This document shows, piece after piece, positions 17,338-29,263 of a DNA stretch of 39,374 nt. Below the pieces are notes generated by a model that made no database searches, was not told where the DNA came from, and saw only the letters and a program-made list of their open reading frames with translations. The DNA lies in IMG/VR virus record IMGVR_UViG_3300005515_000023, positions 1 to 39,374 of that record. One strand, written 5' to 3'. Numbering within the stretch: the first letter of the stretch is position 1; every line of letters starts with the position of its first letter. The translations under genes and the position numbers were made by a program. This DNA comes from a virus.

Positions 17338-19302
17338 ATGACCTATTATGACTTCTCCGGCGCGTTCCAAAATCTGAACAGCGCGATCGGTGGCCTGCGC
17401 AAGCAGTTTGATGACGACCGGAGGCGGCAATCGCTGGCCGATCTCGGCAAGGACATTGGCGCCGGAAACTACGACGCCGCTGCGCAGCGGGCGTTTGCCC
17501 TTGGCGATGCCGATGCGGGGATCAAAATCGCCACCCTCGGCAAGACCGCCCGGCAAGAAGCCGACTGGATGACGAACAACGGGGGTCTTCTGGGGCTAGG
17601 AAACCCTCAACCCGTCGCCCCGGCTCAGCCGTCTGCGTCGAGCACTGCGACCTCCCAAGGGGAGACGTCATTTGGTGACCGGTCACTCCCACGCGGAATC
17701 CGGAACAACAACCCTGGGAACATCGAGGCGGGCAATTTCACGGCCGGGCTGCCTGGTTTCAAAGGGTCTGATGGCCGATTTGCGCAGTTCGAGACCCCTG
17801 AGCAAGGCATCGTAGCAGCCGACCGCTTGCTTCAGTCTTACGCCGGCCGCGGCCTCAATACTGTTGCGGGCATCGTCAACCGGTGGGCGCCTCCGAGCGA
17901 GAACAACACTGGTGCGTATGTCGCGTCGGTAGCGAAAGAGCTTGGGGTAGACCCGAGTCAGCCGCTGGATATGACCAACCCGCAAGTGCGCCAGCGTCTC
18001 ATCGCGGCCAAGATCCGCGTTGAGAACGGACGCCAGCCTTACGGGGATGACGTATTCGCGAGGGCCTACGGCGGTGGTGGCGCCCCGCAGGTGGCTGCGC
18101 CGATCGTGCCTGTGCAGACTGCGGCGCTGGGCGCTCCAAGTCAGCCTGTCGCTCCGATCTCCGGCGACGACCCTGTTAAGCTCCGCCAAGACGCGGAGCG
18201 CTATGCGCAGAGCAATCCCGAGGCTGCGCGCCAACTGCTGGCTCGGGCGGATGCGGCTGAACGCGGCTCGGGCACTCAGATGGCGCAGGCAGCTCCCCAG
18301 GCTGGGACGCCGATGGCCGATCTGCCGGCACAGGGAGCCGCGCCAGCGCAAGGCTTCGCTATCCCCGGCGGTCAGCAGGTCGAATCCTCGATTGCGAACG
18401 ATCCTCGCGTGATGAACCTTCAGCGTGCGCTTGCTGGCGCGCCAGATCGCTTCAAGCCTTCAATCCAGTCTCGGCTCAACATCCTCGTTGAGGAGCTGAA
18501 GGCGCAGCGGCAGCAGCAGAGCCCCACTGACGTCCAGAAGAACTACGCAGCGGCGCGCCAGCAGGGCTACACCGGTTCGCTGTTCGACTATCAGCAAGCT
18601 CTTCGCCAGCAGAACAACGTCAATATCGACCAGAAGGGCGAAGGAGAATACGCCAAGACGGTCGGGAAGGGCCTTGGCGAGCGCATGGACGCCATTTCGA
18701 AAGAGGGTGACAGCGCGAGGCAGGATATGGCGATCATCGGCCAGATCAGGCAGCTGGGAGGCCAGATCCAGAACCTCGGGGCCGGCGCCGCTCTCCAGGC
18801 CCGTCTTGCTGATTGGGGCATCAAGGTCGGGCCGAACGTCAGCGAGATCGAGGCGTTCAACGCTCTGGTCGATAAGCTCACGCCGCAGCAGCGCGTACCG
18901 GGCACGGGCGCTTCTTCGGATCTCGATGTCCGCATGTTCAAGAGCGCATTGCCGAGCCTCATCAGGACGCCCGGCGGCAATGAACTGATCCTATCGACCT
19001 TGGAAGCAGTCGCGAATGACAAGGCGGCGCGCGCCGCTATTGCTGATCGTGCCCTGACCGGCGAACTGAAGCCGCAGGAGGCGATTAAGGAGCTGCGGGC
19101 GCTACCCGATCCTATGGCCGCTCTGAAGGAGTCGCGGAAAGACGGCTTCAAAAGCCTTCCGCAGCTTCAGCAGGAACGCCGCCCGCCGGAGCCGCCTCGT
19201 CCACCTGAGGCGCCGTCGATCCCCGGAGCACGCCAAGCGCCGGATGGACGGTTCTACGTCCCCGATCCGAACCGCCCCGGCAAATACCTTCAGGTGCAAT
19301 GA
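17338..19302 (+). CDS. Ejection / internal virion protein with putative muralytic domain
   Basis: RGIRNNNPGNIEAG...GRFAQFETPEQGIVAADRLLQSY...IVNRWAPPSENNTGAYV is the conserved NNNPGNI virion-protein domain. The remainder is long and A/Q-rich. Confidence 0.6.
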   Translation: MTYYDFSGAFQNLNSAIGGLRKQFDDDRRRQSLADLGKDIGAGNYDAAAQRAFALGDADAGIKIATLGKTARQEADWMTNNGGLLGLGNPQPVAPAQPSASSTATSQGETSFGDRSLPRGIRNNNPGNIEAGNFTAGLPGFKGSDGRFAQFETPEQGIVAADRLLQSYAGRGLNTVAGIVNRWAPPSENNTGAYVASVAKELGVDPSQPLDMTNPQVRQRLIAAKIRVENGRQPYGDDVFARAYGGGGAPQVAAPIVPVQTAALGAPSQPVAPISGDDPVKLRQDAERYAQSNPEAARQLLARADAAERGSGTQMAQAAPQAGTPMADLPAQGAAPAQGFAIPGGQQVESSIANDPRVMNLQRALAGAPDRFKPSIQSRLNILVEELKAQRQQQSPTDVQKNYAAARQQGYTGSLFDYQQALRQQNNVNIDQKGEGEYAKTVGKGLGERMDAISKEGDSARQDMAIIGQIRQLGGQIQNLGAGAALQARLADWGIKVGPNVSEIEAFNALVDKLTPQQRVPGTGASSDLDVRMFKSALPSLIRTPGGNELILSTLEAVANDKAARAAIADRALTGELKPQEAIKELRALPDPMAALKESRKDGFKSLPQLQQERRPPEPPRPPEAPSIPGARQAPDGRFYVPDPNRPGKYLQVQ

Positions 19303-21395
19303 TGGCCGAGCCCCAGCTTGTCCCGGTTGATTTCGATCCCTTCGCCGGGGCGCAGCAGGATACCGGCAGCGGGCCTTTGGTCGTCACGGCCGCGCCAAAC
19401 CGGAGGCAGACCGAGCCTAAGCTTGTGCCAGTCGACCACGACCCATTTGCGCAGGCTCCCTCAGTCGCGGAGGATGTGGCGAAGTCGGCGGGTGCTGGCG
19501 TCGCTCGTGGTGCGATCGGGCTGCTCGGGCTTCCGGGGACGGTAGCGCAGGGGCTGCGTTGGGGAGCGGACGCGCTTGCCGACCAGACCGTAGGTCGTGC
19601 GGTCAATTACGCCAAGACAGGTAGCTGGGACGCCCCGTCTCCACCCTCATCAACGGAGGCCGCCAGGCAGAACACTGTATTCAATCTGCCGACGCCGGAT
19701 CAGGTCATCTCTGGCGAAAAGCTGGTTGATGCGGCCGCGACCGTGGTTCCGGGAATCAAGTATCAGCCGCAGACCATCGCGGGAGAGTATGCTCGCACTG
19801 CCGGCGAATTCGCGCCCGGCGCGCTCATCCCTGGCTCTGCGGCGGCCCGTATCGTCGGCGGCGTAGCTGCACCCGCTATCCTGTCTGAAACTGCCGGGCA
19901 GCTGACAAAGGGAACCGGCTTAGAAGCTCCAGCCCGCGTAGCAGGCGCGCTCGCTGGTGGCCTAGGCGCCGCTATGCTGACGCGGCCTGGCAATGCAAAT
20001 GCCGCTGCTGCCGCTCACATGACAAATGTCGCGGATGCGGACGTTCTGGCCGCCGGTCGGCTGATGGAAGAGGCTGCGTCCCGAGGCGTGCCGTTGACGT
20101 GGCCTGAGGCCATTGCGCAGACCACCGGTAACAGTGCCAGCCTGACTAGCCTTCAGCGCGTCGTTGAAGGCTCCGAGAAGGGCGGGGAGGTAATGCGCGG
20201 CTTCATGAGCCAGCGCCCGGCGCAAATGCAAGCGGCTGGGCGGGCTGCAATGGAGGATCTTGCGCCACCTGTCATCCAGCCTTCGACTGTCGGGCCGCAA
20301 GCCGGCCGGGCTGCCCAGGGAGTGATCGACGACGGTGAGAGGGCTATCAACCGCGCAACGCGCCCTCTCTATGCTCAGGCTGAAGTCCAGAGGCTAGACC
20401 CCGCGGACTTCGCCCGCATCAGCCAGATTCCGGCATTCAAACAGGAATTGGCCGCACTTCGCGCCGATCCGATTATGGGACCGCAATTCGCTCAATTCGG
20501 CGACGACAGCGTTGCTGTGATCGACGCCATTCAAAAGCGGGTACGGGATCTCGGAGACGCAGCAAAGACCGGCGGAGAGAAGTTCAAGGCATCCGTGATC
20601 GGCGGCCAGCGTAGCGATATCATCAACGCTGCGGACGCTGCTGCCCCGTCATATGCCGCTGCTCGTCAGCAGCAGGCGACACTACGCGAGCGCTATCTTC
20701 AGCCGATCATCGACGGCCCGCTCGGCAAGATTGCCGCGAAAGATACGACGACCGAGACGGCCATCAATGCGCTGTTCCCGCGGAAACCGCTGCCTGGCGC
20801 CGCTGGCGAGGTCGCGGATGCGGTAGGAGCGCTTGCTCGAAAGAGCCCCGCGGTTGCCGAGCGTCTGGTTCGCGCACATGCAGAGAGCGTATTTGATGAC
20901 GCCACGCGCGCTCTGACCGGAGGCGCCAATGAGTTTGGTGCAGCGAAGTTCAGCGCAGCCTTAACCGGGAATGCCGAGCAAGCCGCTTCTCTGGAGGCCG
21001 CTGTGCGTGCTCTCCCGAACGGTGACGTGCGCTGGCAGGGCTTCAGGAAGTTCCTCGACGTAGCGGAGGCGACGGGGCAGCGCCAGCGCATCGGTTCCAT
21101 GACGGCCTTCAACAAGGAGATTCAAGACAGCCTTTCGAAGGGCGGTTTGCTGTCGGATGCTGTCCCAGTCATCAAATCTGGCGCTACCGTGCTGCCGACG
21201 ATGATCCGCGAGCGCTATGCGCAGTATCAGCTCGGCAAGAACACGCAGGAACTTGCTCGGCTGATCACCGATCCGGCCGCGCTTCCAGTGTTCCGTCAGC
21301 TCGCGAAAGAGGCGGCAGGCGGTGCGAAGGCGCAGGCGGCAACACTTCGTCTTCTGGCGCTCGCGCAACAGGGGCGGGCTGCCTCCGAACGGTGA
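19299..21395 (+). CDS. Ejection / internal virion protein (P22 gp16 position)
   Basis: ATGA overlap. Tandem N-terminal motif PQLVPVDFDPFAGA / PKLVPVDHDPFAQA. 698 aa, A/G-rich. Confidence 0.6.
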   Translation: MMAEPQLVPVDFDPFAGAQQDTGSGPLVVTAAPNRRQTEPKLVPVDHDPFAQAPSVAEDVAKSAGAGVARGAIGLLGLPGTVAQGLRWGADALADQTVGRAVNYAKTGSWDAPSPPSSTEAARQNTVFNLPTPDQVISGEKLVDAAATVVPGIKYQPQTIAGEYARTAGEFAPGALIPGSAAARIVGGVAAPAILSETAGQLTKGTGLEAPARVAGALAGGLGAAMLTRPGNANAAAAAHMTNVADADVLAAGRLMEEAASRGVPLTWPEAIAQTTGNSASLTSLQRVVEGSEKGGEVMRGFMSQRPAQMQAAGRAAMEDLAPPVIQPSTVGPQAGRAAQGVIDDGERAINRATRPLYAQAEVQRLDPADFARISQIPAFKQELAALRADPIMGPQFAQFGDDSVAVIDAIQKRVRDLGDAAKTGGEKFKASVIGGQRSDIINAADAAAPSYAAARQQQATLRERYLQPIIDGPLGKIAAKDTTTETAINALFPRKPLPGAAGEVADAVGALARKSPAVAERLVRAHAESVFDDATRALTGGANEFGAAKFSAALTGNAEQAASLEAAVRALPNGDVRWQGFRKFLDVAEATGQRQRIGSMTAFNKEIQDSLSKGGLLSDAVPVIKSGATVLPTMIRERYAQYQLGKNTQELARLITDPAALPVFRQLAKEAAGGAKAQAATLRLLALAQQGRAASER

Positions 21396-21564
21396 GCCAA
21401 TCCCACAGGCGAGTGAGGCAGGCGGTCAGGAAGGCGCAGAGGCATATGGAGATGAATAGCTGGATGCTCAGTTCGCCGGCCGTCATCTCCGGGTGCCGCT
21501 GCAAAACGGCCCAGGTGAACCACCCGATGAACAGCGTCTGAGCGATGTACCAGAGGTATCTCAT
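21265..21564 (-). CDS. Small membrane protein (2 TM), second gene of the antisense moron
   Basis: Start MRYLWYIAQTLFIGWFTWAVL at 21564, ATGA-coupled to the upstream 76-aa ORF. Its non-hydrophobic tail overlaps the 3-prime end of the + strand gene 19299..21395 by 131 nt. Confidence 0.45.
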   Translation of the reverse strand: MRYLWYIAQTLFIGWFTWAVLQRHPEMTAGELSIQLFISICLCAFLTACLTRLWDWLTVRRQPAPVARAPEDEVLPPAPSHRLPPLSRADGTLEARPDR

Positions 21565-21791
21565 CGCCCATTTCGCCAGTTGCTGATCATGGTAGCGATG
21601 TAGTCGATCCGGTTCGACATTTCGCGTTGGGTGGCCTCGGTGGAATATGCTTGTTGCCCTGAGAACAGTTGGTAGTGCGCCCTGACAATGTCTCGAATCT
21701 GCACAATGAATTCCAGAACAAAATAGAGCAAGACAACGGTCAGAGCCATTAGGACAACCAGCGCCGTCAAAAGCCACTCCGTCAGCGTCAT
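21561..21791 (-). CDS. Small membrane protein (1 N-terminal TM), first gene of the antisense moron
   Basis: MTLTEWLLTALVVLMALTVVLLYFVL then a polar C-terminus. Local GC is visibly lower than in the flanking late genes. Orientation is opposite to the late operon. Confidence 0.6.
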   Translation of the reverse strand: MTLTEWLLTALVVLMALTVVLLYFVLEFIVQIRDIVRAHYQLFSGQQAYSTEATQREMSNRIDYIATMISNWRNGR

Positions 21792-21884
21792 ATCGCCGCC
21801 CCATCCCGCCTAGGTTGAACATTCTGCCGTGACCTCGATCCCGAGTCCACGGCTAGATCAGCCAAGATCTCGGACATTTCGTGC

Positions 21885-21911
21885 AAGCCGCTCCTTCCGG
21901 GGCGGCTTTTT
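21885..21911 (+). terminator. Intrinsic terminator immediately upstream of the tail-fibre module
   Basis: AAGCCGC-tccttccgg-GCGGCTT followed by TTTTTCT. GGAG and ATG 21928 follow. Confidence 0.65.
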
Positions 21912-21927
21912 CTATTGGAGACCGCCA

Positions 21928-22254
21928 ATGTCAGGCGCCGGAGCGCTCGATGTCTCGTCGTCGATGACGAATGCAGAGAGCCTTTTGTTCACCCTCAAGA
22001 TAATCGATGACGTGGCCCCGAGTGCCTACGAGTGGGTTTATGACCTGGCGGGCTGCCAGACACTGCACCTCACGGAGGGTGACGGCATCACCGTCAATGA
22101 CGGCATTGCCACCGTCATCATTGACCCCGGCGCCGATTATCGGCTGGCCCCAGGCACCTACAAGCACGGCTGCATCATCACCGACAAAGTGACCGGGCGC
22201 GTGCAGCAGGTCTTCGACGGCGAAATCACCGTGACGTGGAGCCCGAACGCATGA
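21928..22254 (+). CDS. Hypothetical tail-module protein
   Basis: Start MSGAGALD (GGAG 8 nt upstream), not the track start 21829, which runs through the terminator hairpin. Beta-rich, 108 aa. Confidence 0.55.
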   Translation: MSGAGALDVSSSMTNAESLLFTLKIIDDVAPSAYEWVYDLAGCQTLHLTEGDGITVNDGIATVIIDPGADYRLAPGTYKHGCIITDKVTGRVQQVFDGEITVTWSPNA

Positions 22255-23627
22255 ACATCAACGTTCGGCTGCGCAGCCCTTCTCCGATCAAACTCCGCTT
22301 CCAGCCAGGCGCTACCGGGCCGTCTGGAACGGTCACGGTCAACCCGACGACGATCACCGGGGCGCCGGGGTCGAACGCATCCGTCGCGAACACTGGCACG
22401 CCTGAAGCAGCTGTTCTCCAGTTCACCATTCCCCGCGGCGATGTCGGTCAGCCTAACTCACTCGCGATTGGCACGGTGACGACTGGTGCGGCCGGCTCCA
22501 GCGCTTCAGCTTTGATCACAGGGACGCCTCCCAGCCAGACGCTAGACCTGACGATTCCTCGCGGGGATCAAGGCATCCCTGGCTCCGTCACCAACGGCGA
22601 CAAGGGCGACATCACCGTCACCGGCACTGGTGACACTTGGACGATCGATAACAGCGCTGTCACTACAGCCAAAATCGCCGCAGCAGCCATCACGATCCCC
22701 AAGCTCGGAGCCGACGTGCTGGCGCTGTTCCCGCTGGCGACCGGCCGGCTGACACTGGTCAGCGGCACGGCTTTCACGTCGGCTGACACTGTCGGGGCGA
22801 CGAACGTCTACTACACCCCGGCAGAAGGTGACGTGATCTCGATCTATGACGGCACGAACTTCGTCCCTCAGGTCTTCACCGAACTGACGCTCGCGCTCAG
22901 CTCGAACTCGGGTCACACCGGCTACCACCAGTCCGGCAAAAACTTCGACCTGTTCGCCGTGCTCGACAGCGGCACGCTGCGACTGGCGACCGGCCCGGCA
23001 TGGACTTCGGACACCGGGCGTGGAACCGGCGCTGGCACGACTGAACTGGAAATGCTCAAGGGCCAGCCGGTCAACAAGAACGCCATAACAATGCGGTTCG
23101 GATCGGCGTCCGGGAACACGATCTCCGCGGCGGCGCGGGCCGGGCGCTATCTCGGAACGCTCCGCACCACGGCAGATGGGGTCACCGAAGACAGCGTCGC
23201 CAAACGCTTCCTTTGGAACGCGTTTAACCAAGTCGAGCTACACATGCGCCGGACCGACCCCGCTGGATCGTGGGCCTACACCAGCGGAACGCCCCGCTAT
23301 GCCAATGGCAACGCTCTCAACCGGTTGGAATTTGTCACCGGCCTGACTGGCGCGAAAGTCGATGCTTTTGCGGTTCAAGGCGCGACCACCACTACTACCG
23401 GCTCTGCCGGCGTCTATTTGGGCCTAGACAGCTCCTCGACCAACGCCGGGTCTGACGGGCTCATGAACCTGCTGCAACCAAATGCGAGCCTCACCCTCGT
23501 CTCGTATGGCCGCATCGACTACAGCGGATATCCTGGGGTCGGCTTCCACTTTCTGTCCCATATCGAAGTGGGTGCGGCTGGGTTCACGATGTACGAAGGC
23601 GGCATCTCCGGCAGGCTGATGGGATGA
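22251..23627 (+). CDS. Tail fibre / receptor-binding protein
   Basis: ATGA overlap. N-terminal repeats GxxGxxAS...L(Q/D)(F/L)TIPRGD(V/Q)G typical of phage tail-fibre repeat regions. Large beta-rich C-terminal domain. Confidence 0.75.
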   Translation: MNINVRLRSPSPIKLRFQPGATGPSGTVTVNPTTITGAPGSNASVANTGTPEAAVLQFTIPRGDVGQPNSLAIGTVTTGAAGSSASALITGTPPSQTLDLTIPRGDQGIPGSVTNGDKGDITVTGTGDTWTIDNSAVTTAKIAAAAITIPKLGADVLALFPLATGRLTLVSGTAFTSADTVGATNVYYTPAEGDVISIYDGTNFVPQVFTELTLALSSNSGHTGYHQSGKNFDLFAVLDSGTLRLATGPAWTSDTGRGTGAGTTELEMLKGQPVNKNAITMRFGSASGNTISAAARAGRYLGTLRTTADGVTEDSVAKRFLWNAFNQVELHMRRTDPAGSWAYTSGTPRYANGNALNRLEFVTGLTGAKVDAFAVQGATTTTTGSAGVYLGLDSSSTNAGSDGLMNLLQPNASLTLVSYGRIDYSGYPGVGFHFLSHIEVGAAGFTMYEGGISGRLMG

Positions 23628-24480: not shown

Positions 24481-24702
24481 TCAGATCGATACGGCTCCGA
24501 AGACTCTCAGGATGCCAAACATCAGGGCGGCAGCGCCGAAGGATTGCAGGACTACCCACGCGTAGCCGACGACCGCCAGAACGGTTGAGACGATTGCGAT
24601 GAAAATCGCCGGCAGGAACCGTCCGGTCGCCATCCAGACGCCTAGCAAGGTGCATGCGAAATTGACCGCCCTTGCTATCCAATGCCTCAGATCATCATCC
24701 AT
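24481..24702 (-). CDS. Small membrane protein (2 TM), antisense to the late operon
   Basis: 73 aa, FACTLLGVWMA...LPAIFIAIVSTVLAVVGYAWVVL...AALMFGIL. Lies between the esterase and endolysin genes on the opposite strand. Confidence 0.55.
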   Translation of the reverse strand: MDDDLRHWIARAVNFACTLLGVWMATGRFLPAIFIAIVSTVLAVVGYAWVVLQSFGAAALMFGILRVFGAVSI

Positions 24703-24826: not shown

Positions 24827-25558
24827 ATGTTCACCGCTGACGATCTCACGCGGCTCGCGAAGGCGTGCGGCGCGAAGCCCAATGCTGCCGTAGTGGCAGG
24901 GATAGTCGAGAACCGCAGCTACCTGACCTATGGCGGGATCAACACGCCGGCCAGGGTCGCGGAATTCCTCGCTCAGGCATGCCTGGAGACCGATTATTTC
25001 CGCGTGCTGGAGGAGTACGCCAGCGGGAAGGCCTACGAAGGGCGCAAGGATCTCGGGAACGTCGTTGCCGGCGACGGCGTGAGGTTCAAGGGTCGCGGCA
25101 TCTTCCAGTGCACTGGCCGCGCCAACTACACCGCCTATGGCAAGCGGCTGGGTCTCGATCTGCTGAAGGAGCCGGGACTGGCAGCGCGGCCCGATATCAG
25201 CGCCCGCATCGCCGTCATGTACTGGAACGATAAAGGGCTGAACGCCTACGCCGATCGAGGCGAGACCGCGGCCATTTCGCGAGCGATCAACCGGGGCAAC
25301 CCGAAGGCCAAGAACCCAGCGAACCATGAGGCTGACCGGATCAAGATCGCCAAGCTGGCGCGTCAGATTATCAGGCCCGTAGCGAGCCCGGCCGCAGCCA
25401 ACACCTCCGACGCTGTCCCGGTCGAAGATCTCCCGAAAGCTCCCGCACCTCCGATCGACCACCAGCCGCCGGCTGTGATCGTCAGCGACGTGCCGCTTCC
25501 CAAGCCCGGCTTCTGGTCGCGCTTCTGGTCTGCTCTCACGAAGAAGGCTTCCGCATGA
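24827..25558 (+). CDS. Endolysin, glycoside hydrolase family 19 (chitinase-like)
   Basis: FLAQACLETDYF...LEEY...YEGRKDLGN...GDGVRFKGRGIFQCTGRANY matches the GH19 phage lysin pattern. CCGGAG RBS. Confidence 0.85.
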   Translation: MFTADDLTRLAKACGAKPNAAVVAGIVENRSYLTYGGINTPARVAEFLAQACLETDYFRVLEEYASGKAYEGRKDLGNVVAGDGVRFKGRGIFQCTGRANYTAYGKRLGLDLLKEPGLAARPDISARIAVMYWNDKGLNAYADRGETAAISRAINRGNPKAKNPANHEADRIKIAKLARQIIRPVASPAAANTSDAVPVEDLPKAPAPPIDHQPPAVIVSDVPLPKPGFWSRFWSALTKKASA

Positions 25559-26154
25559 ACGACCTGATCGCAGTCCTGACCAAGGCGGGCGCGCCTATCC
25601 TTGGCGGCATCATCGGAGGCCCGGTGGGCGCACTGGCTACCGCAGTCGTCGGAGCGCTCGCGGAAGCCCTAGGGACGCCTGCCACGCCCGAAGCAGTCAA
25701 GGAGGCCATCGAGACAGGCGGCCCGGCTGCGGAAGCCGCTGTGCGCCGCGTAGAGGCCGATCGCGGGCCGGGCTATCTCGAAGAGCTGAACGCGATCCTG
25801 AAGGATAGGCAGGAGGCTCGCCAGCACACCATCAGCCTGCTGGAAAGCGGCTCGTCGATGGCCTGGGGCGCGCCTATCGTCTCGGTGATCGTCATGGCCG
25901 GTTTCGTCGGTCTGTCATTCCTCGCCATGAAGCCGGAAAGCGCCGGCATCCGCAGCGACGTGGCGCTGTACCTTCTCGGGGCCTGGCAGTCTTTGGCAAC
26001 CGCAGTCGTCGGCTATTGGATCGGGTCGAGTGCCGGATCGGCCCGAAACGGCGACGCAATGCGCGCCCTGGCGCAGCAGGCCACCACACCGACCGCCGGA
26101 CAGATCGCCGGAAAGGCAATCGACGCCGCGGTGAAGACGGTCGCCAAACGATAG
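25555..26154 (+). CDS. Holin (GTA-type 3-TM holin family, putative)
   Basis: ATGA-coupled to the endolysin. G/A-rich N-terminal helix ILGGIIGGPVGALATAVVGALAEAL, a central soluble region, then TM segments (APIVSVIVMAGFVGLSFL, ALYLLGAWQSLATAVVGYWIG). Confidence 0.6.
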   Translation: MNDLIAVLTKAGAPILGGIIGGPVGALATAVVGALAEALGTPATPEAVKEAIETGGPAAEAAVRRVEADRGPGYLEELNAILKDRQEARQHTISLLESGSSMAWGAPIVSVIVMAGFVGLSFLAMKPESAGIRSDVALYLLGAWQSLATAVVGYWIGSSAGSARNGDAMRALAQQATTPTAGQIAGKAIDAAVKTVAKR

Positions 26155-26318
26155 CAGAGCGGCACAGGACGGCGCTTGCAACACCGCCCCGTGCCTTACC
26201 CCGAAGCCTGGATAAGAGGCCGCGAGGATCGGATACGAGATGCCTAAGCCTAGTGATGCGCAACCCGTGCCTATCAGCAGGGTTAACACGCCGTCGCCTA
26301 CCCGAAGGGTGACCCGGA

Positions 26319-26756
26319 GTGGCTGACATGAAGATGCCGGAAAAAGGCCGGTTCGAGTACAACCTCAATACGTGGGTGATACTCGGGGGCATTGCCGCCG
26401 GCCTAGCATCGACAGGCGCCACGTGGGGCTACTTCGCCAGCCAGGTCGCCAACGCTGATCGCGAAACCAAGGAGTGGCAGCAGCGCCACGAGCAGCTCCA
26501 CCGCGATCGCCTCCAGCAAACGACTGCCGAGAATTCCCGTCAAGAGCAGCGCCTCAACCAGGCTGAAGAGCGCTTGAGGAAGATGGACAACCTCGAATAC
26601 CGGATCACGGTTGCTGAGCAGGCGGGGCTGAACACTGCCAAATCGATTGAGCGCCTGACTGACACCGTGAACGGCCAATCGGCTGATATCCGCGTGATGC
26701 GGGAGATCATCGAGCGCCAGTTTGGGACCACGTTCCAGAGGCCCACCCGGCGCTAA
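26319..26756 (+). CDS. Membrane-anchored coiled-coil protein (i-spanin-like or lysis accessory)
   Basis: N-terminal TM WVILGGIAAGLASTGATWGYF followed by a Q/E/R-rich coiled coil. The start may be ATG 26328 rather than GTG 26319. Confidence 0.5.
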   Translation: MADMKMPEKGRFEYNLNTWVILGGIAAGLASTGATWGYFASQVANADRETKEWQQRHEQLHRDRLQQTTAENSRQEQRLNQAEERLRKMDNLEYRITVAEQAGLNTAKSIERLTDTVNGQSADIRVMREIIERQFGTTFQRPTRR

Positions 26757-26781
26757 CCAGACAGCACCTCCCTGTTGAACT

Positions 26782-26826
26782 AGCCGGCGCTGTCCTTCGG
26801 GGCGGCGTCGGCTGCTTTTTTGCGTT
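26782..26826 (+). terminator. Intrinsic terminator ending the late operon
   Basis: AGCCGGCGCTGTCC-ttcg-GGGCGGCGTCGGCT (UUCG loop, some G-U pairs) followed by GCTTTTTTTGCGTTTT. Lies between convergent gene ends. Confidence 0.75.
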
Positions 26827-27093
26827 TTACATTTGAGCGCGAAGTGCGGCGGCAATTCGCACGAAAGACGCGGTCGCCTCGTCACGTATGTCGTCGTAAT
26901 AGTGGTCATCCTGGCACGCGGAGGCGATCTTGATCGCTTCCTGTTCTGCCATAGTCTCTACTATTCGAGCAGCGCTTTCCGGTCCGATCTCTTCGCCACT
27001 ATCGTTCCATATTCTGACCCCCCGCTCAGCTCCGGGCGCACGTGTAGCCCACCACGGCGTCATCCACTGCGGCAGGTACTCGCTAAACTTCAT
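26827..27093 (-). CDS. Hypothetical protein (last gene of leftward array)
   Basis: Strong RBS GAGGAGGA upstream of ATG 27093. 88 aa. Confidence 0.6.
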   Translation of the reverse strand: MKFSEYLPQWMTPWWATRAPGAERGVRIWNDSGEEIGPESAARIVETMAEQEAIKIASACQDDHYYDDIRDEATASFVRIAAALRAQM

Positions 27094-27146
27094 CCCTTAT
27101 CCTCCTCATCAGTCATGCGGGCGGGGCCGCCGGCTCTTTTGGCGTT

Positions 27147-27476
27147 TCAATACCTGCCCTTGCCCGCCCGCGCGTTCACAAGCTCCATGTGCTTGATCCA
27201 TTGCAGCCAGCGCTCATCGCCAAGCCAATCACGGTAGGTATCCCAAGCTGAGCGGAACTGCTTCATCGCATCATCGCGCGTTTGAGCGACGCCTTGCTTG
27301 CCGAGGTCTGGTGATGGGTCATGGACTTGGATTGTCCAATGCCATACGGGGCTCTGCTGCCATGCTTGGTGGACGATCGACCCGATGTAGACGCCTTCGC
27401 TGGTCACACGCCAGAAGTGCTCTCGGTTCGCCTGAATCGGGTCGTCGGGATAGGTGCGGGAGAGGATCAGGCCCAT
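27147..27476 (-). CDS. Hypothetical Trp-rich protein
   Basis: 109 aa with GC3-rich frame. W-rich (WHWTIQV..., AWDTYRDWLGDERWLQW). No function recognised. Confidence 0.55.
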   Translation of the reverse strand: MGLILSRTYPDDPIQANREHFWRVTSEGVYIGSIVHQAWQQSPVWHWTIQVHDPSPDLGKQGVAQTRDDAMKQFRSAWDTYRDWLGDERWLQWIKHMELVNARAGKGRY

Positions 27477-27544
27477 CCCCCCAGTCTATGGCTTCTCCTT
27501 GCCGGAGGCGAGGGTGTCGCGCGTTTCCCATAGCGCCTTGACTG

Positions 27545-27631
27545 TCACTTCCATGGATCGCGCCATGTGGTCGGGCTCGTAGCGCCCCAGCGCGGCGGTT
27601 TGCCATACATGGGGTCACGCGGGTGCTTCAT
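27545..27631 (-). CDS. Possible 28-aa micro-ORF
   Basis: ATGA overlap with the stop of the upstream gene (27628). MKHPRDPMYGKPPRWGATSPTTWRDPWK with good GC3. Below the 60-aa track cutoff. Confidence 0.3.
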   Translation of the reverse strand: MKHPRDPMYGKPPRWGATSPTTWRDPWK

Positions 27632-27837
27632 CCCTCTTTCCCCTCTGCGAGCGCGAAGAGGGCTTCTCGTCCACTCTTCGTAATCCGCCACGTTGGCCGG
27701 TCTTCCAGCCCAACGCGCTCTGTGAACTTCTCGACATAGCCAAGGTCGCTAAGAGCGCTCATCTCTGGCTCGCATGAGCCGACAGCCACCGGCGCGCAAT
27801 CCACGAGCCGCAGGACTGATTGTTCCTGCGGGCTCAT
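27628..27837 (-). CDS. Small winged-helix-like protein
   Basis: ATGA-coupled. LSDLGYVEKFTERVGLEDRPTWRITKSGREAL looks like a wHTH recognition helix plus wing. Confidence 0.55.
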   Translation of the reverse strand: MSPQEQSVLRLVDCAPVAVGSCEPEMSALSDLGYVEKFTERVGLEDRPTWRITKSGREALFALAEGKEG

Positions 27838-28394
27838 CTACTTCCCCTCGCAGCGGCGGAAGCGGAACGGGCTGGGGAGTGCTCGTCGTTGATCGCGATC
27901 ACAGTCCGGTCGGGCTTGTTCGTGTAGAGCCAGAACTGCCAAGCCTCCCCTGCGCCTGAATAGATGCCGAGGTACCACGATCCCTTGTCCATCTGTTCGA
28001 GGTGTACCTTCGCTCCGCAGGCTACGACCTCGTCGATTGTCCCGTCGTCGTTCCGGCGGATTTCGACCTCCGTCTTTTCGGTCGCAATCGCCACCGCCTG
28101 CGCGAGCTTGGCTTGAAGTGCATCTGCCCTAGCGGCCTCCTCCCTGATCATGATGCCGCGTTGTTTGCAGACCTCGCGCTCGATCTCGATCTCCGCGTCC
28201 TTCGCCTCGAACGCTGGGCGGATGAGGGAGAGGATGCGCGCAGTGGCTTCAGGGATGCCGCGGGTCTTTCCGCTGTGTTCGGTCCACAGTTCCTCAGAGA
28301 GGATGAACGACAGGTCTTCCTCGCTCGGCATCCCAGGTGCGGCGGAGCATGATGCATTTTCGGCGTATTGCTCTGAGGGTGAGTTAGCGCTCAT
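27834..28394 (-). CDS. Hypothetical protein
   Basis: ATGA-coupled at both ends. GGGAGACAAGGA RBS. 186 aa with a central coiled coil. Confidence 0.6.
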   Translation of the reverse strand: MSANSPSEQYAENASCSAAPGMPSEEDLSFILSEELWTEHSGKTRGIPEATARILSLIRPAFEAKDAEIEIEREVCKQRGIMIREEAARADALQAKLAQAVAIATEKTEVEIRRNDDGTIDEVVACGAKVHLEQMDKGSWYLGIYSGAGEAWQFWLYTNKPDRTVIAINDEHSPARSASAAARGSR

Positions 28395-28750
28395 TCCTTG
28401 TCTCCCGCCGCTGAGAGCATGGCGCTCGGAGGAGCGGGCGCCAGAAAGAGCTTGTGCTCGCCAGGTAGCAAGCGACTGAGCCGGCTGTCGATCTCATTTA
28501 GAGATATGCAGCGCCGCCCGTCATGCATGTAGACGGTCGCACGAACGCTTGGTTCGGCTGCCGCCTCCTTCGGCTTGGCGGATTCGTAGGCCTCGATCGC
28601 GACGACAGCCAAGGCCTGAGCGCTCTCCCACTGGCGCTGCTGCCTAGCGAAGTCCTGGTTGCTAACCGGGCCTTCCATCGCTTCATAGAGCGCCTTTGCA
28701 ACGGTGCTCTTCGCCTTCTCATCGATCATTGCAAGACTCCTGGTCTGCAT
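28391..28750 (-). CDS. Hypothetical protein
   Basis: GC3-rich frame. An alternative start MIDEKAKS at 28729 would reduce the overlap with the upstream gene. Confidence 0.55.
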   Translation of the reverse strand: MQTRSLAMIDEKAKSTVAKALYEAMEGPVSNQDFARQQRQWESAQALAVVAIEAYESAKPKEAAAEPSVRATVYMHDGRRCISLNEIDSRLSRLLPGEHKLFLAPAPPSAMLSAAGDKE

Positions 28751-28946
28751 CGCGGGCCTCGTTGAGTGCGGCGCGGCATTCGGCGCACTGCTCGAAATCG
28801 AGCACGCCGTGTTCGCAAGGAGTTGTCATTCCGCGGACGAATGAGGCACGTTGCGCTTCGTCATGAGCTTTGCGCTGCTCAGGCGTCATTGCCTCATAGC
28901 GACGCACGGCTTCGCGAAAGAGATGACGGAGTTGAAGCTCGCTCAC
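28719..28946 (-). CDS. Small Cys/His-containing protein
   Basis: GTGA overlap with the upstream stop. TPCEHGVLDFEQCAECRAAL suggests a small metal-binding knuckle. Confidence 0.5.
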   Translation of the reverse strand: MSELQLRHLFREAVRRYEAMTPEQRKAHDEAQRASFVRGMTTPCEHGVLDFEQCAECRAALNEARDADQESCNDR

Positions 28947-29263
28947 GACCGGCCCTCCTTATCGCCTGTGGGGTGGGGATTTGAGGTGGCATCCGCTAGG
29001 TTCCGGCCAGAACTCTCAGGCGGGAGCGGAAGCGGCATCCAATGCGTTGGCGTCACCACCGAATAACGGTCATACAGCCCCTGCCATCTGGGCTCCCCGA
29101 TCGGCTCACCGCCCCATACCGTACGCGCCCAAATGCAGTTTGCGTACCGGTCGGCTTCGCCCGTAGCTTCACGGACAGCCCAAAGGTCGATGACCGTCCC
29201 ATCCTTCGGAGCCGTTTCGATCGGCTGCCAGGTAGGTGAGGACAGCTCGCGGATGCCCCTCAT
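28943..29263 (-). CDS. DUF551-like protein (second copy)
   Basis: WQPIETAPKDGTVIDLW... and TPTHWMPLPLPPES. Paralogue of 4891..5181. Confidence 0.7.
   Translation of the reverse strand: MRGIRELSSPTWQPIETAPKDGTVIDLWAVREATGEADRYANCIWARTVWGGEPIGEPRWQGLYDRYSVVTPTHWMPLPLPPESSGRNLADATSNPHPTGDKEGRS

Follow-up and report, generated by a model that had tools for sequence, protein, structure and literature searches.

What do two small genes do that are read against the late operon of a temperate phage, directly behind its last ejection-protein gene? The question is raised by the IMG/VR virus record IMGVR_UViG_3300005515_000023, of which positions 1 to 39,374 were analysed (the whole stretch of 39,374 nucleotides (nt) is called the window below); this is a lambdoid, P22-like temperate phage genome or near-complete contig of 39.4 kb. 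Two minus-strand open reading frames (ORFs), ORF A (21561..21791, 76 amino acids (aa)) and ORF B (21265..21564, 99 aa), lie between the ejection module and the tail-fibre module, and a preliminary description of the locus had proposed that they form a superinfection-exclusion or lysogenic-conversion cassette. We found that ORF B belongs to a rare gene family that had so far been neither named nor annotated and that occupies a genomic slot of a known kind. As for its role, ORF B may plausibly be a non-homologous functional analogue of SieA of phage P22 that blocks DNA entry at the inner membrane, a tentative proposal that we hold at somewhat less than even confidence.

The arrangement described at the outset was borne out by the coordinates. 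The TGA of ORF A and the ATG of ORF B overlap as ATGA (read as 'tcat' on the plus strand at 21561-21564), both sizes are correct, and ORF B overlaps the 698-aa ejection gene, which ends at 21395, convergently by 131 nt. A single-sequence search retrieved 16 homologues of ORF B and a profile search 31 (5.8 billion protein clusters); most of them are exactly 99 aa long, none is named and none carries a Pfam domain. Among nine distinct genes, the differences in codons 1-56 were distributed as 562, 371 and 755 over the codon positions 1, 2 and 3, and the pairwise ratio of nonsynonymous to synonymous substitution rates (dN/dS) was mostly 0.1-0.6, a pattern which indicates that ORF B is under purifying selection and that this selection acts on the protein. 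A public collection of 15 billion proteins includes the portal and the coat protein encoded by this contig (39,475 nt) but not the exact product of either ORF A or ORF B, so that the gene callers evidently missed both ORFs.

As had been remarked from the beginning, the two proteins match nothing recognised: scans of ORF A and ORF B against Pfam, PHROG, NCBIfam and PADLOC gave nothing above noise for either ORF, and a tblastn search with ORF B against 50,697 GenBank phage records gave no match. Similarities to PspM/Rv2743c (E 0.007-0.03) and to LptG (E 0.016) were rejected, being far below the family cut-offs. A Foldseek comparison of the AlphaFold2 model of ORF B with BFVD yielded no match with E <0.5, a result which is uninformative for a helical hairpin.

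On the basis of the family alignment, AlphaFold2 predicts for ORF B a helix at residues 2-23, a loop at 24-28, a second helix at 29-60 and a disordered tail (mean predicted local distance difference test score 70). Hydropathy analysis (Kyte-Doolittle, 19-residue mean) identified one strong segment (2.28), the first helix being uncharged and aromatic-rich with a hand-computed mean of about 1.2. From hydropathy and model together two transmembrane segments are likely, the first being borderline, so that the two segments counted earlier stand with this reservation; the single segment counted for ORF A was confirmed. Both termini of ORF B are probably cytoplasmic and connected through a periplasmic loop of 8-10 residues. 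Across 29 family sequences Q9, F45, W54 and D55 are invariant, and W5, I13, W15 and an AFLTA..T core nearly so. The helix cores do not vary, whereas positions 16-41, which comprise the loop and the adjoining helix ends, are variable. Helix 2 is characterized by the motif (L/V/A)(C/A)AFLTA(C/L)LTxxWD(W/L) and helix 1 by the invariant Gln.

Conservation ends at the WDW motif, which adjoins the stop codon of the ejection gene (21393-21395). This limit divides ORF B into two parts of different character. The conserved hairpin domain (aa 1-57, about 56 residues; 21394..21564, minus strand) lies outside the ejection gene and has the composition of a native gene, with a GC content of 0.598 and a GC content at third codon positions (GC3) of 0.86. 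The tail (aa 58-99, 42 residues; 21265..21395, minus strand) overprints the final 131 nt of the ejection gene in antisense, and its GC3 of 0.58 together with a first-position value (GC1) of 0.84 is atypical for a selected frame. Two unrelated types of tail occur in the family, each tracking the C-terminus type of the adjoining gp16-like gene; according to a hand calculation from coordinates, the tails of the window type and of the type found in the related locus L001 are in different antisense frames. The homologue from Methylobacterium possesses a short and different tail. We therefore regard the tail not as a functional domain but as a probable antisense run-on, which would have persisted because stop codons are lacking in GC-rich antisense frames.

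Two other interpretations of this segment were considered and rejected. The start codon of ORF B is an internal ATG of a 185-aa open frame (21265..21822, minus strand); the ATG of this longer frame falls inside a -10-like hexamer, and its N-terminal 86 aa are rich in Arg, Cys and His and have no homologues, whereas the frame of ORF A has a full-length one. A direct repeat (21314-21335 / 21417-21439) might suggest that helix 2 of ORF B is a duplicated antisense copy of the ejection-gene 3' end; the repeat was reached by 6/300 shuffles and is absent in eight relatives, and it was dismissed as chance.

Is ORF A then a regular partner of ORF B? It encodes one N-terminal membrane helix (one strong segment with a hydropathy of 2.8), and its GC content of 0.515 stands against 0.621 for the whole window, the sliding-window minimum of 0.533 being located at 21450-21749; the lower local GC content noticed earlier is real. 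A word-indexed homologue search found nothing for ORF A. By an exhaustive phmmer search of 1.84 billion representatives one full-length homologue of 76 aa was recovered (P0017, 53% identity, E 1e-18), and the comparison of the two genes (dN/dS 0.20; differences at the codon positions 32/21/45) shows a constrained reading frame in ORF A as well. The homologue is encoded on a 900-nt contig (L057), adjoins a G/Y-rich secreted protein and is ATGA-coupled to a downstream ORF which is cut by the contig end and of which the remainder is not recognisably ORF B-like.

The closest relative of the window, L008, aligns by blastn with positions 20403-21563 at 80% and with positions 21792-22318 at 72% identity. 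Between these flanks, the segment 21564-21791, which is ORF A, has no counterpart; L008 instead has about 1 kb there, in which three different ORFs, including a DUF5334 gene, are found. Nothing precedes ORF B in L001, L006, L010 and L011; in other relatives unrelated small membrane or secreted proteins are encoded upstream, and in L002 and L007 these genes are coupled to ORF B via overlapping stop and start codons. The expectation that the ORFs would be conserved as a pair was therefore not upheld, since ORF B occurs alone or with unrelated upstream genes. The comparison indicates that ORF A is a later, low-GC insertion between a promoter-like element and ORF B. Some of the upstream genes recur in their own right. 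Secreted Gly/Tyr/Asn-rich small proteins are found repeatedly in the slot (L022 4076-4348, L054 4756-5028, L057 243-521), and similar single-helix peptides of the form MREP...W.. precede ORF B in L009 (5756-5956) and L024 (4442-4687), where they may represent a second, semi-conserved partner.

The promoter-like element, TGGACT-N17-CAGAAT, lies at 21821..21849 on the minus strand (-35 hexamer 21844-21849, -10 hexamer 21821-21826), and transcription is predicted from it to start near 21814. Its general form, T(G/T/C)(G/T)A(C/A)N-N17-CAnnnT, is retained with a fixed 17-nt spacing in seven lineages. As the element remains below the threshold for sigma-70 promoters, it is this conservation that suggests a promoter function. 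In L002 it heads the operon, and in both L002 and the window inserted genes are located between the element and ORF B. Six relatives (L001, L006, L009, L010, L011 and L041) carry the -10-like hexamer only 6-8 nt before the ATG of ORF B and have no Shine-Dalgarno sequence, which suggests a leaderless transcript; an ORF B that is not first in the unit is provided with a strong Shine-Dalgarno sequence (L008) or with stop-start coupling.

Read on the minus strand, the region upstream of the operon has a conserved order: it opens with the beginning of the following late gene, after which come an A run, a GC-rich hairpin, a block of about 35 nt and the promoter-like element. The block (21850..21884), situated between the terminator-like and the promoter-like sequences, is kept in the window and in L001, L006 and L010, has no Rfam match and no second copy in the window. 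A conserved ATG within it opens a mini-ORF of variable length, the frame of which is broken in L006. The hairpin (21885-21908) and its T run form an intrinsic terminator-like structure for the plus strand (21885..21913) with a 10-bp stem containing seven G-C pairs, 15-20 nt before the next late gene. The same structure is conserved in relatives including L027, L035 and L038, which have no slot gene, so that it looks like an older internal terminator of the late operon, and a strong terminator at this place implies that expression of the tail and lysis genes depends on antitermination. A terminator of the accessory unit on the minus strand was not found in the window scan, Rfam and tRNA scans detected no RNA elements, and inspection of the repressor region for shared operators revealed nothing usable. 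With respect to the moron character claimed for the unit, the patchy occurrence and the atypical composition were substantiated; an own terminator was not, and the promoter-like element stays sub-threshold.

All recovered loci with an ORF B homologue of the P22-like type have the same plan, in which the gene is convergent with a last ejection gene of about 700 aa and overlaps it by about 130-165 nt; across family members and unrelated slot genes together, the 3' overlap ranges from 39 to 273 nt. The constant neighbour of ORF B-type genes is the C-terminal domain of the ejection protein, about 250 aa long, as seen in the C-domain alignment. This association extends to the most distant member of the family and the only one in a cultured isolate, Methylobacterium nonmethylotrophicum (L058 10001-10243, SRLB01000046.1). 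There, the gene overlapped at its end by the homologue encodes 1100 aa and lies in a phage-like cluster of different organisation (with an SU10-adaptor Pfam hit and Peptidase_S74), and the last 250 residues of its product are homologous to the ejection C-domain of the window (hhalign E 4e-41).

How often the slot is occupied was estimated from a metagenome census that was queried with the ejection C-domain and not with ORF B, and that gave 42 loci, not de-replicated, 39 of which had enough downstream sequence. In 22/39 loci the 3' end of the ejection gene is overlapped by a small membrane ORF on the minus strand, ten of these 22 having ORF B according to its hidden Markov model; in the other 17/39 loci the ejection gene is followed directly by the tail genes. 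The slot genes other than ORF B fall into several groups, some of which are remotely linked to ORF B by profile comparison with hhalign probabilities of 99%, 93%, 75% and 40% (reversed controls mostly <=1%, worst 23%), and for one group no profile link to ORF B was obtained by hhalign. One slot-gene locus (L021) is part of a contig of 1.13 Mb and is therefore probably integrated in a bacterial chromosome. In L013 (5957-8179) the slot holds a set resembling the P22 immI region: a gene for a protein with two transmembrane segments that overlaps the ejection gene, a gene for a 137-aa C-terminally anchored protein, an Arc-domain (Mnt-like) gene that is read on the minus strand and, on the plus strand, genes for an Arc-like protein and an ANT/pRha antirepressor.

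Pairwise comparisons revealed a mosaic. Between the window and L008 the ejection C-domain is 94% identical and ORF B 62%, whereas the window and L002 share about 85% nucleotide identity over 21397-21554 only, their ejection C-domains being 49% identical. These identities point to a recombination joint at the stop codon of the ejection gene and to hairpin alleles that move independently of the overlapped gene.

Taken together, we propose that a minus-strand accessory unit of prophage type sits between the last ejection gene and the internal late-operon terminator. The sigma-70-like element would start a transcript near 21814 that encodes ORF A and then, via ATGA coupling, ORF B; in this unit ORF B would be the ancestral conserved gene and ORF A a later insertion into the operon leader. 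ORF B would be made in the lysogen and be located in the inner membrane, where it might disturb how the incoming conduit of ejection proteins assembles or inserts into the membrane, or else occupy a host inner-membrane factor needed by the conduit. Superinfecting relatives would then adsorb and fail to deliver their DNA. It had been supposed that late transcription, being antisense to the cassette, silences it during lytic growth; sieA is up-regulated on induction (PMC10883804), a precedent that would point the other way.

The assignment to exclusion or conversion is drawn from two things, the position in the slot and the type of protein. For entry exclusion speak the slot and orientation of sieA, the immI-like region in L013, the temperate nature of the phage and the small hairpin membrane protein under purifying selection. 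In the same direction point the patchy distribution, the very diverse slot sequences and the reassortment of alleles independently of the ejection gene, as well as the concentration of variable positions (16-41) at the loop and helix ends and the conserved promoter-like element. The link to the ejection C-domain persists in Methylobacterium, and mutations conferring escape from SieA in P22 are located in the C-terminal parts of gp16 and gp20 (PMC10883804). In addition, a separate holin candidate beside the endolysin means that ORF B is not needed for lysis. Several points weigh against this proposal. ORF B has no sequence or profile similarity to SieA, no match in Pfam, PHROG, NCBIfam or PADLOC and nothing significant in Foldseek, and it is a protein of 99 aa with two helices, compared with 162-164 aa and three helices in SieA. 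The promoter-like element agrees with the sigma-70 consensus in 8/12 positions by hand count, the scanning threshold being 9. Since the periplasmic loop is very short, a contact with the ejection proteins would have to be intramembrane, and the near-invariant helix 2 is no less compatible with a conserved partner in the host than with an arms race against phage proteins. Finally, the positional argument is an analogy with a single well-studied phage.

The main rival explanation is that the prophage-expressed cassette acts on the host envelope in another way, by affecting a transporter, a sensor or an envelope-stress pathway or through some other lysogenic conversion or defence, and does not block entry at all. 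An almost invariant helix 2 is what would be expected for a conserved host membrane partner, the varied upstream cargo of the relatives (G/Y-rich secreted proteins, DUF5334, peptides with one transmembrane segment) is typical of mixed moron cargo, and no family match ties ORF B to exclusion. Such a role would leave the exact sieA slot and orientation unexplained, and the strict linkage to the ejection C-domain across two phage-type clusters would be unexpected for a generic conversion gene; we consider the explanation possible, if doubtful. That both ORFs are chance open frames in GC-rich DNA might be suspected from the many spurious antisense ORFs of similar size in the window and from the gene callers behind the public protein collection, which recorded neither ORF. 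This explanation is refuted by homologues of equal length at equal position and by the codon-position pattern of substitutions with dN/dS <1 for both ORFs.

It is also conceivable, though unlikely, that the locus serves the lytic cycle, either because ORF B or its transcript tunes expression of the gp16-like gene and of the downstream tail and lysis genes, or because the protein handles the ejection protein at the membrane. The overlap with the ejection-gene 3' end, kept in every family member and in unrelated slot genes, and the internal late terminator adjoining the cassette would be consistent with it. The 17/39 related loci without slot gene show that the gene is dispensable, selection acts on the ORF B protein, and the overlapped tail differs in sequence and length by type, as stop-poor GC-rich antisense frames would give. 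Very unlikely, finally, is a membrane-damaging peptide, holin-like or of the type I toxin kind, restrained by antisense transcription. Like class II holins, ORF B is small, has two helices and ends in a charged tail; it is antisense to a strongly transcribed operon, and the upstream conserved block with its plus-strand terminator might in principle be part of an antisense RNA. Neither a plus-strand promoter nor an Rfam RNA was found there, though; ORF B is away from the endolysin and on the wrong strand for late expression, the other holin candidate is coupled to the endolysin, and a protein of 99 aa with two helices exceeds typical type I toxins.

The surroundings of the unit are those of a P22-like late operon. 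The structural genes of the window include those for the large terminase, portal, major head protein and head-closure protein. In the ejection module a PHROG 'DNA ejection' protein is followed by a 654-aa protein with a transglycosylase region and by the 698-aa protein (19299..21395, plus strand), which by its place after these two occupies the position of P22 gene 16. Searching the same 50,697 GenBank phage records with its C-domain matched only Rhizobium phage RHph_N65 among cultured phages (33% identity), in which a lysin gene is located directly 3' of the C-domain gene without any slot gene. The first late gene past the cassette (21928..22254, plus strand, 108 aa, with GGAG before the ATG at 21928) is homologous to the cassette-flanking gene of L008 and is followed by tail-fibre-like genes, a SASA-type esterase and a GH19 endolysin. 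In the interval of esterase and endolysin there is a second small antisense ORF (24481-24702, minus strand, 73 aa, two or three hydrophobic segments), which matched no family and had no homologue among the loci fetched. A 199-aa ORF (25555..26154, plus strand), which is joined to the endolysin gene by ATGA coupling and encodes at least two hydrophobic segments, is the likely holin; from the position of holin and endolysin, the lysis genes are located after the tail genes, unlike in P22, where they are at the head of the late operon. The early and lysogeny genes comprise those for an ERF recombinase, a DnaB helicase and a CI-like helix-turn-helix and S24 repressor, the presence of which marks the phage as temperate; no integrase was recognised among the window ORFs scanned, as noted for 26000-29000.

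If ORF B does act in exclusion, the slot would be a general home for entry-blocking genes, and ORF B, about 40% smaller than SieA, would constitute a minimal model of an inner-membrane protein that stops the ejection-protein conduit. A more far-reaching version, about which we are rather sceptical, is that ORF B stands for a new superfamily of minimal hairpin exclusion proteins of about 56 residues, overprinted on the 3' end of the target-domain gene and often leaderless, in which exclusion factor and target domain would co-travel across podovirus lineages while hairpin alleles are shuffled at the stop-codon joint. Irrespective of function, the family is a clean natural example of a gene tail made by antisense overprinting, and in the locus a recombination joint coincides with a stop codon and one moron is nested in another. 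Since neither ORF was picked up by public gene callers in this contig, the number of such genes is probably underestimated.

Comparison with known systems places the unit close to the lambdoid morons, independent units of promoter, gene and terminator within late operons, with which it shares the location between two late genes, an own promoter-like element, patchy occurrence and exchangeable cargo. In composition ORF A (0.515 against 0.621) deviates as a moron would, whereas the hairpin part of ORF B (0.598) does so only weakly. Unlike those morons, the unit is read against the late operon and showed no minus-strand terminator, and ORF A is inserted inside an older accessory unit and not between core genes. 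Class II holins such as S21 resemble ORF B in that they are small, have two helices and carry a charged tail at the C-terminus; ORF B differs from them in being encoded outside the lysis cassette, at a distance of 3.3 kb from the endolysin and on the other strand, and in having no family match. T4 Imm and HK97 gp15 are reportedly small inner-membrane proteins that block phage DNA entry, and gp15 is said to be a moron inside the late structural operon, among the tail genes and on the same strand. ORF B resembles both as a very small, phage-encoded and predicted helical membrane protein, whereas its genomic context, a temperate phage and the opposite strand, is different; T4 is a virulent phage, and a sequence relationship of ORF B to these proteins is not to be expected.

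For SieA the comparison is as follows. In P22 (BK000583), a gap of 22 nt separates gene 16 from sieA, which is encoded on the opposite strand, has its own promoter and precedes orf59a, mnt, arc, ant and gene 9; this corroborates the position and orientation initially ascribed to the cassette, with the immI-like set of L013 alongside. SieA is a protein of the inner membrane, with 162-164 aa and three helices, that blocks DNA injection by a mechanism which is still unresolved; its types B and C have four helices, the size class is about 160-200 aa, and the types A-C share about 25% identity with one another (PMC10883804). The gene was reported in 22/66 P22-like phages, exclusively in Enterobacteriaceae (PMC10883804), unlike ORF B, which is found in high-GC phages of alphaproteobacterial type. 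Moreover, ORF B overlaps the ejection gene, whereas a gap separates sieA from gene 16. Homology to SieA was rejected, since hhalign gave a probability of 0.5% over 15 columns, the cytoplasmic FxRYPxEAxxFNK motif of SieA is absent, and size and helix count differ; after these failed tests of homology and architecture, ORF B can be at most a functional analogue outside the SieA family. What it has in common with SieA is a predicted small membrane protein, present in some relatives only and with very divergent sequences in the slot, the gene of which is situated directly 3' of the last ejection gene and convergent with it, before the tail-fibre or tailspike genes and opposite to the late operon.

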